Positions 50,953 to 60,803 of a stretch of 64,000 bases of DNA are shown here, piece after piece. Positions within the stretch are counted from its first letter, which is position 1. Every line of letters starts with the position of its first letter. A program made the translations under genes and the position numbers. The notes under the pieces are model-generated. The model was not told the DNA's origin. It saw only the letters and a program-made list of their open reading frames with translations, and searched no databases. The DNA comes from Escherichia coli (lineage in GTDB: Bacteria > Pseudomonadota > Gammaproteobacteria > Enterobacterales > Enterobacteriaceae): assembly GCF_030013595.1 (NCBI RefSeq), contig NZ_CP122768.1. One strand, written 5' to 3'.

Positions 50953-50990
50953 GTTATACCCCCATAAGATTCTATGAGGGTATTTATTGA

Positions 50991-56491: not shown

Positions 56492-57145
56492 TTATTTCTT
56501 CGATGAATGCCACTTGCTTTCGCTATTCCACTTCCCGGCTCGGGAGAAGAATAGATCGTTCTCGTTTCCGGCATAGGAACGGTGGATACCATCGGAGGCA
56601 TGACTACGAGCGTTTTTATCTAGAACTTCCCAGATACTATTAAGCTGAAATTCTGATTCGTTTTTACACTCATCATCTTCATGTTCGATGTTAATCCCGA
56701 TGGAATCGACTACCCCACGGAAAACAGGGTAAGTAGTTTCAACCTTGCCCGTGTTGGGGTTAAGGAAAACCATCTCGATTTTCACATCAGATTTATCGAA
56801 TTGCTTGTTTCGAATTAGGGTAATGTATTCTTCGCGAACGTTAGAAACGGTTACGTTAATCCCGTTGTTGTTGATCTCCTTCTCTTCGGTATTCGATGAG
56901 ATTTGAAGAAAATCACCCGTTGCGAGATACGTAAATCCGTTATAGTCCAAATCGAAATACCCATCTGTAAGCCGTAGAACGTCCCCTGACGCTGTTATCA
57001 CTTCGATAATGTGAAACATCGATCCAGTGGAAAAAAGCTGCGGTAGCGTCAATCTAGACACGTTCTGACCTGTCTGGTCGTTGTAGACCTCGATGAAGTC
57101 CAGATTAGTGCATAGTTTGCTGAATGATTCTTGAATAGTTGCCAT
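56492..57145 (-). CDS. Minor tail protein (gpL-position)
   Basis: 217 aa between distal tail gene and J-like gene. Confidence 0.45.
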   Translation of the reverse strand: MATIQESFSKLCTNLDFIEVYNDQTGQNVSRLTLPQLFSTGSMFHIIEVITASGDVLRLTDGYFDLDYNGFTYLATGDFLQISSNTEEKEINNNGINVTVSNVREEYITLIRNKQFDKSDVKIEMVFLNPNTGKVETTYPVFRGVVDSIGINIEHEDDECKNESEFQLNSIWEVLDKNARSHASDGIHRSYAGNENDLFFSRAGKWNSESKWHSSKK

Positions 57146-57705
57146 TATACATTCTCCACTAATTCAAATTTCATCTTGCCAATCTGGGCGATCTTCCAAT
57201 CGATATTTTCAGTTTTGAGAACAAATTCACCTTCTACGTTTTGATACTTGATCACCTCACCCGCCAGGACGTTTTGACGCAAGTTAGGGAAGAGTTTCAT
57301 TTCACCACCTGATTTCACGTCTTCGGTGATCGTGTAGATTTTCTTGTGGTTCTCAAACTGGATGATAGTTCCTGCTTTCAGTGTTCCGGTGAAGTTGGAG
57401 AGTCTCACCTTACGCCCACCGCGAGCAGTACCAGCAGCAGCCGTTACCATCTGGCGTACATCACCTGTATATTTTGAAAAGTAAGACAGTGGCACATTGA
57501 AAGGACGACCAAAAAGGTGACGTGCTACAAATTCTTTTACTTCGTTAATATCCTGAGCCATGTAATTCGCGGTAAATTCTGCTTCGTAAAAATGGATGCC
57601 AGTAAAGCGACGCTGGAACTTACCAGAAATAGATTGCGCCTTAAAGAAAGGCTGTTTTGATTTAAGAGTAAAATCTGTGATTTTAATATTCTTGGATTTG
57701 AACAT
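57145..57705 (-). CDS. Minor/distal tail protein (gpM/Dit-position)
   Basis: Directly downstream of tape measure gene; probable start ATG 57705 (track start 57720 lies in a hairpin). Confidence 0.45.
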   Translation of the reverse strand: MFKSKNIKITDFTLKSKQPFFKAQSISGKFQRRFTGIHFYEAEFTANYMAQDINEVKEFVARHLFGRPFNVPLSYFSKYTGDVRQMVTAAAGTARGGRKVRLSNFTGTLKAGTIIQFENHKKIYTITEDVKSGGEMKLFPNLRQNVLAGEVIKYQNVEGEFVLKTENIDWKIAQIGKMKFELVENV

Positions 57706-57756
57706 AGAAAAGCCCCCCATAGTTTTATGATTATTTATGACTATGGGGGCTTTTAA

Positions 57757-60111
57757 TTACATCTTACGGCGTTGTGCGTCTTCTACCGCCTGAGCAACTA
57801 ACTTAGCGTGACGTTTGATAGCATCCATGACCATCTTGTCTGAGCTATTAACGTTGCCGTTAATGTTCAAAGGCGCATTAACTTCAATCGGTTGAGAGTT
57901 GCCACCGCCTGATTTTTGAGCAGCAAGGAAGTCTTTCAAATCACCGTTAGTACGCTGATCAACTACTCGTTCACCCTTATCAAGCAACCATGTACCCTCA
58001 CGAGGGATGTTATCAATACCATCATGAGCCATACCGCTAACGTTAGTAGACTTGATGTTGGCGATGCTCCCCATGTTCTGAGAAACAGCCAATGCAGCAG
58101 CCGCGATTTTTTGACCTGTGGTTACGTTGGTCGGATCGTTCCATGCATCGGTAGCAGCCGTCCACATGTTCACCGTCGCTTGTCCAATAGAGAATGCTTT
58201 ATGAGCAGTGAAAGCCATCTGCATAGCTTTAGTGTTTTCCTGCCCGAAGAGAGTCATTGCAGCAGCAAAACCGCCATACATATCATCAGCTATTGACTGA
58301 CGAGCATCAGCATATTTCTTCTCAATTGCAGCCATTCGTTTTTGATGGTTTTCATTGAGTTTTTCTAATTCTTCCATCCGTTTAGCCGGATCGGTGATCC
58401 CATCAATCTTGATTTTACCGGTCTTATAATCTTGTTCCGCTTCCGATTTCTCTTTATCGATTGCATTAAATTTAGCAAACGGATCATTTGGATCTTGATA
58501 GTCTAAGCTATTGGTCAACTGATTGGTTTTAAAACCATCCATTCCATGCAAAGAATCTTCAATCTGTGAATAACTTTGCTCGGTATCATTCACACGACGC
58601 ATATATTCTTCGTAGGAGATAGCTTTACCATCAAGTAACCGTTTATGGCTTTCTAACTCGTTGTCCCTGATTTGTTGCAAAACTGTTAAGGCATTCAAAG
58701 CATCAACCGGATCAGCACCCAGCATCATTTTATAGATGTTTTCTGCGTTCTGGTCTAACAGTTGCTGACGTTTAGCGGCTGCGTCTTGCTGTGAGATTAA
58801 GCCCAGATCTAAAGCAGTGTCCAAATCTTTCAAGCTGGCTTCTAACTGCTTGTTTTGAGAAGCAATAGACGCGGCTGTCTGTCCTTGCAATTTAACATCA
58901 AGAGCATTCAGTCGCTTGATTGCATCCTCGCGTGCTTTCTGTGCTTTTTCTGCGGCTTCCTTAGCCTTTTTAGCTGCCTCTTCCGCTTTCTTCTTGGCTT
59001 CTTCTTGTTCTTTTTTTGTTGGACCAGTGACGCCTCCACCTTGACCCGTTGGGGTAAATCCAGTATCCGATTTATTTCCAGTGATAGTAATTACCGGATC
59101 GCCGTTTTTATCACGGGTAACTCCTTCACTATCCACCCAACGATCAGGATAATTTGGTTTATTGTTGAAGCTGGCTTGTCCACCTGCTAGACCAGTAGAA
59201 CTATAACCATGCTTGTTAATAAAACCACCGTTAGCCATAGCCATATTCTGGCGAGCTTTTTCAAACCTTTCATTAAACGTCTTTAATGCGTTGAATAAAG
59301 CGGTCTTTTCCCAATCTTTATCAAACCAGTTGTATAACTTGTTCATCCCTTCAACAACTGGATTTAGCGCATTTGCTGCCATACCCTTTAAGTTATCGGT
59401 AAGGGTATCCATATTTTTAGAGAATTTATTATATTCTTCGGCTGTATCATTGGTGATTTTAACAGTTTGCTGATTAATGGCGTTTACAGCTTCCTGATAA
59501 GATCCGTATTTCTGCAATTCATCAGCCATATGACTTGAATCACTGGCTAACGATTCCATCATAAACTTAACATCAGCGATAGACGCACCAGCCTTGCGCA
59601 TATCATAGAAGACCTTGATTGCCGCTTTCATCCCGCCTTGTGGATCGTTCATAAACTCGGCATAATCTTTAATCTTCAAACCTACACTTTCTAGGTCGTC
59701 TTCAATACCGCCACCGTTACGCCATGCATCAGCCAGTTTATCTAAGGTGTCTTTGTTAATATCACCAAATTTCTCAACGGTTAAGCCAGTGCCAGAGAAT
59801 TGCTTCTCTAATTTCTGGAGTGTTTCGACGGTTAAACCAGTTGCTTTTGAAACTTCGCTGTATTCCTTTACATAATCACCGATGGCATTTGCAGCAGAGA
59901 CAGCACCAGCAGCCAGACCAACAAAACCACCAGCAGCCAAAGCAAGCGATCCACCAGTTCCGCGAAGGGTTCCACTTAAACTAGATAAACCACCAGACAA
60001 ATCAAGATTCATTGCCCTTTCTGAAAGGTTATCAAGCATGTCAATCGCTTGGTTGGTACTTCTCCTTAGACCGTCGTTATTCCCTTCTATTGTTACTATA
60101 TGTCTTGTCAT
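57757..60111 (-). CDS. Tail tape measure protein
   Basis: 784 aa, long coiled-coil/Ala-Lys-Glu-rich regions (EEAKKKAEEAAKKAKEAAEKAQKA), Gly-rich segment. Confidence 0.8.
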   Translation of the reverse strand: MTRHIVTIEGNNDGLRRSTNQAIDMLDNLSERAMNLDLSGGLSSLSGTLRGTGGSLALAAGGFVGLAAGAVSAANAIGDYVKEYSEVSKATGLTVETLQKLEKQFSGTGLTVEKFGDINKDTLDKLADAWRNGGGIEDDLESVGLKIKDYAEFMNDPQGGMKAAIKVFYDMRKAGASIADVKFMMESLASDSSHMADELQKYGSYQEAVNAINQQTVKITNDTAEEYNKFSKNMDTLTDNLKGMAANALNPVVEGMNKLYNWFDKDWEKTALFNALKTFNERFEKARQNMAMANGGFINKHGYSSTGLAGGQASFNNKPNYPDRWVDSEGVTRDKNGDPVITITGNKSDTGFTPTGQGGGVTGPTKKEQEEAKKKAEEAAKKAKEAAEKAQKAREDAIKRLNALDVKLQGQTAASIASQNKQLEASLKDLDTALDLGLISQQDAAAKRQQLLDQNAENIYKMMLGADPVDALNALTVLQQIRDNELESHKRLLDGKAISYEEYMRRVNDTEQSYSQIEDSLHGMDGFKTNQLTNSLDYQDPNDPFAKFNAIDKEKSEAEQDYKTGKIKIDGITDPAKRMEELEKLNENHQKRMAAIEKKYADARQSIADDMYGGFAAAMTLFGQENTKAMQMAFTAHKAFSIGQATVNMWTAATDAWNDPTNVTTGQKIAAAALAVSQNMGSIANIKSTNVSGMAHDGIDNIPREGTWLLDKGERVVDQRTNGDLKDFLAAQKSGGGNSQPIEVNAPLNINGNVNSSDKMVMDAIKRHAKLVAQAVEDAQRRKM

Positions 60112-60114
60112 AAA

Positions 60115-60465
60115 TTACCCCGTTTGTGCGCTTCTGAGTTTCTCAAGCAAAGATGGATCGAACATGTTCAGCATTGCCGCTTTACGTTCTTCTTCTTTCT
60201 TGCGTGCAATTTCTTCCAGTTCTTCTTTAGTTTTAAAGAGTTTTTCTTCTCTAATTAATTGGAATTGGCTAGGCTTGAGTTTGCGTGCAGTTTCGCGAGT
60301 CATTCCTTGTGACGTCATATACATGGAATATTGCAACATCGCATTCTGCATATCATGAAACGCGGGGCTTTGTGGTTCTAAGTAGGTGTCGAAAATGTAT
60401 AATTTCCAAAACAGAGTGATTGGCATATTATCCATTTCATCTTTACTAAGCCCCGATCGCATCAT
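60115..60465 (-). CDS. Tail assembly chaperone, T-like frame
   Basis: 116 aa immediately upstream of TMP; its frame is open across the stop of the preceding gene. Confidence 0.45.
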   Translation of the reverse strand: MMRSGLSKDEMDNMPITLFWKLYIFDTYLEPQSPAFHDMQNAMLQYSMYMTSQGMTRETARKLKPSQFQLIREEKLFKTKEELEEIARKKEEERKAAMLNMFDPSLLEKLRSAQTG

Positions 60466-60494
60466 TTGCCGGAAATAGAAATTCAGAAGCGGGT

Positions 60495-60803
60495 TTACTT
60501 TACCTCGTTTTCAATTACTGCCGGATCTTGCATCAATGACGCTTGAGCAACCAAACCGATTAATTCACTACGGACGTTAGTATACAGTGCCTTAACTTGT
60601 TCCATAGATTCAAATACTGGTTTACCGTCTTCATCTTCAATACAACGAAGAATAGAACGTTCATCACGGTCTTCTTTATCAGTATTGAAAACATGTTCGT
60701 TAAATTCTTTTACTGACATAGGGCGAGCATAGAACGTGAATCCGCCGATGGTCAGAGATTCACGTTTCGGAGAAAGAGCTTTCAGCATTTCATTAATATT
60801 CAT
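60495..60803 (-). CDS. Tail assembly chaperone, G-like
   Basis: 102 aa acidic protein between tail tube-side genes and TMP. Confidence 0.45.
   Translation of the reverse strand: MNINEMLKALSPKRESLTIGGFTFYARPMSVKEFNEHVFNTDKEDRDERSILRCIEDEDGKPVFESMEQVKALYTNVRSELIGLVAQASLMQDPAVIENEVK

Follow-up and report, generated by a model that had tools for sequence, protein, structure and literature searches.

A conserved hairpin between the tape measure and distal tail protein genes of an Escherichia coli prophage contains the downstream Shine–Dalgarno sequence and may couple translation of the two genes

The 51-nt gap between the genes encoding the tape measure protein (TMP) and the distal tail protein (Dit) of an E. 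coli prophage was found to specify a stable and conserved RNA hairpin, the 3′ arm of which carries the Shine–Dalgarno (SD) sequence of the Dit gene. The prophage lies in the window, i.e., the whole stretch of 64 kb of DNA that was analyzed. We give about an even chance to the reading that this element is a translational-coupling hairpin that also serves as a weak, ribosome-sensitive terminator. An earlier note on this DNA had suggested only that the hairpin could attenuate transcription; because the Dit SD lies in its 3′ arm, a role in translation carries at least equal weight. As judged from sequence comparison, the hairpin is real, conserved, functional-looking, and ordinary in kind; it resembles two textbook devices (the intrinsic terminator of phage late operons and the SD-sequestering coupling hairpin) and represents no new class of mechanism. 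It would provide a simple case in which a phage might grade the expression of tail-shaft versus tail-tip genes via one RNA element acting on both transcription and translation.

The prophage has a tail module of the siphovirus type, in which the relevant genes are all located on the minus strand in the order of a 641-aa tail-fibre-domain protein, tube, a 168-aa protein, chaperones G and T, TMP, Dit, a hub N-terminal domain protein, a DUF6950 protein, and a gpJ-like tip protein. The tube gene spans 62003–61527 and the gpJ-like gene 56026–52250. The TMP gene (57757–60111, 784 aa, taken from the open reading frame list) ends with a TAA stop codon at 57759–57757 and matched PHROG TMP families with a best E-value of 9e-70. 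The Dit gene (57145–57705, 186 aa, start ATG 57705) matched PHROG_1302, distal tail protein, with an E-value of 8e-17, and its product matched T5 pb9 weakly in the PDB (E-value of 0.018). The prophage was present at 95–99% identity in approximately 55 of 5426 complete E. coli genomes (approximately 1%), and its insertion site in strain PSJ-22 was ycdX. The GenBank phage collection yielded no DNA-level match to the prophage, and the only match at the protein level was the distant phage DCP80 (44%). The Dit homologue of DCP80 (L001, PQ671644; 6004–6564) is unannotated in the GenBank record. This 141-kb record is classed as Straboviridae/Gaprivervirus, yet it has a siphovirus-type tail module, which suggests a misclassified record or a chimeric assembly.

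Within the module, the second chaperone open reading frame (ATG 60465; region 60115–60803, minus strand) follows the G-like chaperone gene and lacks an SD (−1.1 kcal/mol), which is consistent with the usual programmed frameshift between G and GT. The longest open reading frame for the DUF6950 protein overlaps the hub gene by 110 nt (56492–56601), and the start assigned by PGAP is later (a 420-nt gene in locus L040). An insertion of approximately 840 bp was present in the DUF6950/hub region of locus L074 (5215–6052).

On the coding (minus) strand, the 51-nt spacer that separates the TMP stop codon from ATG 57705 (57756–57706) reads UUAAAAGCCCCCAUAGUCAUAAAUAAUCAUAAAACUAUGGGGGGCUUUUCU as RNA. It folds into a stem of 15 bp, interrupted by one bulged G, that closes a 16-nt A/U-rich loop. 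The 5′ arm, AAAAGCCCCCAUAGU (57740–57754), begins 2 nt past the TMP stop codon and holds a C-run complementary to the SD; it is followed by the loop, CAUAAAUAAUCAUAAA (57724–57739). The 3′ arm, ACUAUGGGGGGCUUUU (57708–57723), contains an in-stem AUG (57720–57718), the G-run of the Dit SD (57718–57713), and four U residues (57711–57708). The stem includes a G, five C–G pairs, and CAUAG/CUAUG, after which the sequence continues as UUUU C U A U G U U; that is, the U-run is followed by CU and then by AUG 57705, and it doubles as the SD-to-AUG spacer of Dit. The minimum free energy (MFE) of the hairpin alone was −20.2 kcal/mol (z = −4.94), a value not reached by any of 200 dinucleotide-shuffled sequences. 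In a 101-nt context, the z-score was −3.98. Across the 64 kb, just 15 inverted repeats (≥12 nt, arms no more than 60 nt apart) were present, and the hairpin is among them. The inverted repeat that the earlier note had placed between the TMP stop codon and the next gene was thus borne out by the folding energies, and ATG 57720 does lie within its 3′ arm. The loop, previously read as 20 nt, is 16 nt long; the T-run on the minus strand is present, but it comprises just four T residues; and the arms of the coding strand carry C5 on the 5′ side and G6 on the 3′ side, a small correction to the earlier description.

A chance palindrome was ruled out by the z-scores, the conservation, and the compensatory change described below. 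The best matches of Rfam covariance models to positions 57000–58500 had E-values of 2.6 or worse, far under the gathering scores. A search for a dispersed repeat (REP/BIME/ERIC-like or MITE) retrieved only one related copy in the 64 kb (50983–50956), which is also in the prophage.

Homologous loci (given as L numbers) were gathered by alignment of Dit homologues down to approximately 30% identity, and their synteny was mapped with tblastn. Among 35 close sequences, substitutions were observed at two sites in the 51 nt of the hairpin region, and variable columns accounted for approximately 27% of the last 145 nt of TMP and approximately 13% of the first 150 nt of Dit. The loop was nearly invariant in the 35 relatives, with one C/G polymorphism; its G variant could form an inner 5-bp stem (GUGAU/AUCAU). 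Six IMG/VR loci have U in place of one C of the 5′ arm (CCCUC opposite GGGGG), which gives a U·G pair in the coding-strand RNA, and the same stem pair was U–A (CCUCC opposite GGAGG) in L136 and L137, two E. coli relatives of approximately 89% identity. One stem pair is accordingly C–G in most relatives, U·G in six loci, and U–A in L136 and L137, where the compensatory change also yields the textbook SD GGAGG. Because the U·G pair is acceptable only in the sense RNA, and neither the antisense RNA nor a DNA cruciform would tolerate the change, these substitutions indicate that base pairing is under selection in the sense RNA. In L135, the A-tract is gone (AAUUG) and UUUU is kept, so the retention of the U-run does not merely serve pairing with the A-tract. 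The compensatory changes were read straight from the sequences, and formal pair counting on the alignment was dropped; the alignment rows were out of register because the lengths of the C, G, and T homopolymers vary.

The earlier note had preferred ATG 57705 to the in-stem ATG 57720 as the true start of Dit, and this choice is backed by five independent lines of evidence. ATG 57720 belongs to the stem (CUAUGGGGGG), with loop sequence upstream and no SD (+1.6 kcal/mol for the duplex with the 16S 3′ end), and ATG 57705 is preceded by GGGGGG at 7 nt upstream (SD duplex of −9.3 kcal/mol). G-runs of this type, GGGG(G), are the norm for SDs in the prophage; they also serve the tube, TMP, and gpJ genes and four further genes. 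Among 34 close relatives, homopolymer lengths were C4–6, G5–6, and T4–5, and because of this variation the in-stem ATG was out of frame with Dit in 21 and in frame in 13. The combination in the window (C5, G6, and T4) is in frame and was absent from all others of the 35 sequences compared. The N-termini of Dit homologues with 44–63% identity (MINSK, MFKND, and MIKSK) aligned with MFKSK from ATG 57705, following the pattern M-x-x-S/N-K. PGAP annotated the 186-aa form of Dit in six E. coli genomes, three of which have the in-stem ATG in frame. A start at ATG 57705, with a non-functional in-stem AUG 57720, is well supported by these comparisons, and annotation of Dit in this prophage family should place the start at ATG 57705 (186 aa) rather than at ATG 57720. 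The variation in C, G, and T run lengths (57708–57750; L002–L034) occurs among prophages that are otherwise 97–99% identical, and it could reflect slippage or a sequencing artefact.

In the MFE structure as well as in the centroid structure, the G-run of the Dit SD is base-paired. Opening of the region from −18 to +13 around AUG 57705 was calculated to cost 25.2 kcal/mol, the maximum in the module, versus 5–12 kcal/mol for most other genes. As the 5′ arm occupies positions +3 to +17 past the TMP stop codon, the cost was recalculated with the nucleotides after the stop codon held single-stranded: it was 20.4 kcal/mol for 7 nt, 11.4 kcal/mol for 10 nt, and 6.4 kcal/mol for 13 nt, where the extent of stem melting by a terminating ribosome is based on an assumed reach of 10–13 nt. 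All the sequence-level features tested for an SD-sequestering coupling hairpin were present, i.e., the SD is paired, the opposing arm is within reach of the ribosome, and the pairing is kept.

These features suggest the following mechanism. The 51-nt gap would be transcribed within the tail operon mRNA and fold into the stable stem-loop, in which the Dit SD forms the 3′ arm, and the ribosome-binding site of Dit would be closed as long as the hairpin is folded. A ribosome that has reached the TMP stop codon, 2 nt before the stem, would draw the 5′ arm into its mRNA channel, and the SD thus freed would allow a new 30S subunit to load at Dit. Dit synthesis would then be tied to, and capped by, TMP translation through ribosome-assisted unfolding. 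The hairpin together with UUUU(C)U would probably end a minority of transcripts, mainly those without a ribosome close behind RNA polymerase. Classic cases of coupling are atpHA and the coat/replicase genes of RNA phages.

For E. coli operons, Tian and Salis both modeled and measured coupling by ribosome-assisted unfolding of intergenic structure and obtained an apparent Boltzmann factor for coupling of 0.45 mol/kcal (PMC4538824). At this factor, the calculated drop of 14–19 kcal/mol would correspond to a several hundred-fold or larger change in initiation. The TMP–Dit junction resembles their system in that the SD is paired in a stable local hairpin, the stop codon is within a ribosome footprint of the 5′ arm, and the calculated opening cost falls by 14–19 kcal/mol with a ribosome on the stop codon. 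It differs in its intercistronic distance of 51 nt, which is longer than that of typical coupled pairs, and in the 16-nt A/U-rich loop and U-run, which give a terminator-like shape; the dependence on upstream translation is a prediction here. Coupling cannot explain a group of rearranged loci (L077–L086, described below) because no co-directional open reading frame precedes their hairpin. In siphophage tails, at least as many copies of Dit as of TMP are needed, and a strong down-regulation of Dit would be surprising for this reason.

A sister hairpin was found at 50956–50983 (minus strand). It has the form AUACCCUCAUAG-AAUC-UUAUGGGGGUAU, with a 4-nt loop and no U-run, and its arms (CCCUCAUAG / UUAUGGGGG) match those of the TMP–Dit hairpin almost completely. 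It is separated by 7 nt from the stop codon of an upstream 227-aa gene and by 3 nt from AUG 50952 of a 115-aa gene, the GGGGG SD of which it masks, and it lies just upstream of an endolysin-like gene. Opening of this ribosome-binding site was calculated at 18.8 kcal/mol, falling to 12.2 or 5.8 kcal/mol with a ribosome on the upstream stop codon. The sister hairpin is kept in 26 IMG/VR loci; in one variant (L121), both wobble pairs are changed to Watson–Crick pairs and the SD becomes GGAGG. Because this hairpin lacks a U-run, SD masking appears to be a recurring design independent of termination.

Hairpins are carried by all the non-overlapping junctions of the operon in the window, and all its other junctions overlap. 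The hairpin before the tube gene (62051–62033; CGGGGGA-CUAGU-UCCCCCG), between the 641-aa gene and tube, has a U-run on the antisense strand only. Canonical terminators follow tube (61396–61372) and gpJ (52231–52198); the remaining hairpins are the one after TMP, the sister hairpin between the 227-aa and 115-aa genes, and one at the operon end (50237–50215). The tail operon of this uncharacterized E. coli prophage is thereby punctuated after tube, TMP, and gpJ.

The TMP–Dit boundary is similarly marked in other lineages. In every lineage with a TMP gene (12 of 12 diverged lineages), a GC-rich hairpin starts 0–9 nt past the TMP stop codon. Canonical terminators were found in L098 (AAGCCAUCC-UAUC-GGGUGGCUUUUUU), in L088 (AAAAAGCCCGG...CCGGGCUUUUUU, with a large inner part), in the rearranged L078 (AAGGGACC-UACG-GGUCCCUUUUG), and in L087, L096, and L097 (GCCCUCU-CAUG-AGGGCUUUUU types); in L095, a first hairpin without a U-run is followed further downstream by a canonical terminator (AAACCCGC-CACG-UGCGGGUUUUUUU). 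The U-runs of the positional counterparts in L088, L098, and L078 are U6–7. Hairpins without a U-run were observed in DCP80 (GGGGC-UUCG-GCCCC), L092 (GGGGGC-UUCAU-GCCCCC), and L075 (GGGAUUC-AUAAGU-GAAUCCC). The window type and L073 have a short U-run and a hairpin fused with the ribosome-binding site of Dit; in L073 (63% identity) and in L077–L086, a long hairpin likewise carries the Dit SD in its 3′ arm. Not every lineage masks the SD at this boundary: in six relatives (DCP80, L075, L088, L092, L095, and L098), the post-TMP hairpin and the Dit SD are kept apart. Because a hairpin is found in every lineage as well as at the non-overlapping junctions of the operon, the boundary is a conserved punctuation point, which supports a punctuation role for the hairpin there and, in general terms, the idea of the earlier note.

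In three distant lineages (L087, L096, and L097), a predicted membrane-protein gene of 203–269 aa is inserted on the reverse strand exactly between the post-TMP terminator and Dit (e.g., L087 3144–3953 and L096 3326–3937). It looks like a moron exploiting the same boundary.

In L077–L086 (41–49% identity), Dit and hub are not preceded by TMP and diverge from a T4-lysozyme-like gene. In L077, L078, and L086, G, T, and TMP come after the lysozyme gene on the strand opposite to Dit–hub. The 50–60-nt spacer between the divergent genes holds a perfect 13–18-bp palindrome with CCUC...GAGG ends that contains both outward-facing SDs (e.g., L078 3943–4001 and L082 approximately 3950–4000). The L086 hub gene appears frameshifted, and these loci look like rearranged, partly decayed prophages. 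A large serine recombinase and a CAP12/Pycsar-type TIR protein are encoded nearby.

An explanation in terms of transcription alone is that a leaky intrinsic terminator lowers the tip genes (Dit, hub, and gpJ) relative to tube, the chaperones, and TMP, and that its overlap with the SD reflects genome compaction. The GC-rich stem is followed by U4–5 and preceded by an A-tract, canonical counterparts occupy the same position in L088, L098, and L078 and lie slightly downstream in L095, and the same operon has the canonical terminators after tube and gpJ. A terminator consensus scan, which required a loop of 3–8 nt, listed four other hairpins of the operon and missed the TMP–Dit site because its loop is 16 nt; loop size was the sole reason for the failure. 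Stem-loop terminators also delimit the late gene clusters of SPP1 (PMC6316719), and the TMP–Dit hairpin resembles those terminators in its GC-rich stem, U-run, A-tract, and location right after a major structural gene. In the literature, nothing specific was found on a terminator between TMP and Dit. Relative to canonical intrinsic terminators, the GC stem and U-tract are present and the short loop and the distance between stop codon and stem are not: the loop measures 16 nt, the U-run is interrupted by a C after four residues and is also the SD-to-AUG spacer, and no more than 2 nt separate the stop codon from the stem. The sister hairpin does without any U-run, and the terminators of L087, L096, and L097 may equally serve the convergent inserted gene. 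Li et al. reported that lambda tR2 was almost fully repressed close to a stop codon: when the stop codon was moved from 28 bp to 5 bp upstream of the lambda tR2 terminator in E. coli, the efficiency decreased from approximately 90% to less than 10%, and the repression was abolished when translation was removed (PMC4824070). With a stem 2 nt past the stop codon, a ribosome completing TMP would therefore usually block hairpin formation behind RNA polymerase, and termination would be limited to transcripts with lagging translation. The attenuation of tail-operon transcription proposed in the earlier note is plausible and finds partial support, as a hairpin follows TMP in every diverged lineage and several of these hairpins are canonical terminators, but the 16-nt loop, the four U residues, and the proximity to the stop codon weigh against its being strong here; leaky termination as the full account of the element is possible but rather unlikely.

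Less likely still is a role in mRNA stability or processing, in which the hairpin blocks 3′-to-5′ exonucleases or is cut by RNase III, giving the tube-to-TMP and tip-gene segments different lifetimes. Any stem this stable would impede exonucleases, stable hairpins without a U-run are found at the same place in DCP80, L092, and L075, and a further such hairpin is located before tube (62051–62033). However, nothing specific points to processing; neither an Rfam family nor a known RNase motif turned up, and this account leaves unexplained both the location of the SD in an arm of two hairpins and the retention of U4–5 without the A-tract. Stable intercistronic C(UUCG)G tetraloop hairpins were reportedly described in T-even phages by Tuerk et al. 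in 1988; the homologous junction of DCP80, with GGGGC-UUCG-GCCCC right after the TMP stop codon, is like these, whereas the window hairpin has a large A/U loop and includes the SD. A palindrome acting at the DNA level, as a protein-binding site or as a point of recombination or module exchange, seems very unlikely. It would fit the location of the hairpin at a mosaic junction, where a perfect palindrome joins Dit–hub to the divergent lysozyme gene in L077–L086. It would also fit the putative IS1 end adjoining the 5′ edge of the hairpin in L026/L063 (IMGVR_UViG_2690316210_000001), in which the sequence approximately 50 nt upstream of Dit, ...GTTGGCAGCATCACC, which we take to be the IS1 terminal inverted repeat, is found in place of the TMP gene. 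Against it, the U·G intermediate of six relatives would be a T·G or A·C mismatch in a cruciform, and the arms map exactly onto the SD and its complementary sequence; a sequence-specific protein site is disfavored because hairpins of unrelated sequence hold the same position elsewhere. A further reading, which we consider improbable, is that the hairpins at the TMP–Dit and 227-aa–115-aa junctions belong to a small family of SD-masking palindromes (arms CCCYCAUAG/YUAUGGGGG) that are ribosome-gated switches and could also be substrates for inversion. Both read-through and downstream translation would then be set by translation of the upstream gene. Because each palindrome carries its sequence in both orientations, inversion between two similar palindromic SD hairpins may yield a junction of the L077–L086 type, and it would explain the palindrome joining Dit–hub to the divergent lysozyme–chaperone–TMP block. 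Ribosome hopping from the terminal AUG of TMP over the hairpin to the Dit AUG, which would produce a TMP–Dit fusion, is extremely improbable. Bypassing of the T4 gene 60 type involves matched take-off and landing codons on either side of a gap of about 50 nt, a stop codon and hairpin at take-off, and conservation of these features in relatives. Here, TMP ends with an AUG codon, UAA and the hairpin come next, and the Dit AUG is 54 nt on. The match between take-off and landing AUG is trivial because every gene starts with AUG, and the C-terminal Met of TMP is common to the window, L073, L075, DCP80, and L078, while TMP in L087–L098 ends with Q, T, or S. The coupling hairpin with weak termination remains the reading that we prefer.

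Promoter-like sequences in the loop were also considered and rejected. A sigma-70 promoter there would give a transcript without the 5′ arm, but the best −10-like hexamer was AATAAT with no acceptable −35 element at 15–18 nt, and the promoter scan listed none. The loop also contains ATAAATA, a motif like that of T4 late promoters; its 19 occurrences in the window, versus 12.7 expected, are not a significant excess. Its two copies in the prophage are located in A/T-rich spacers beside the two hairpins.
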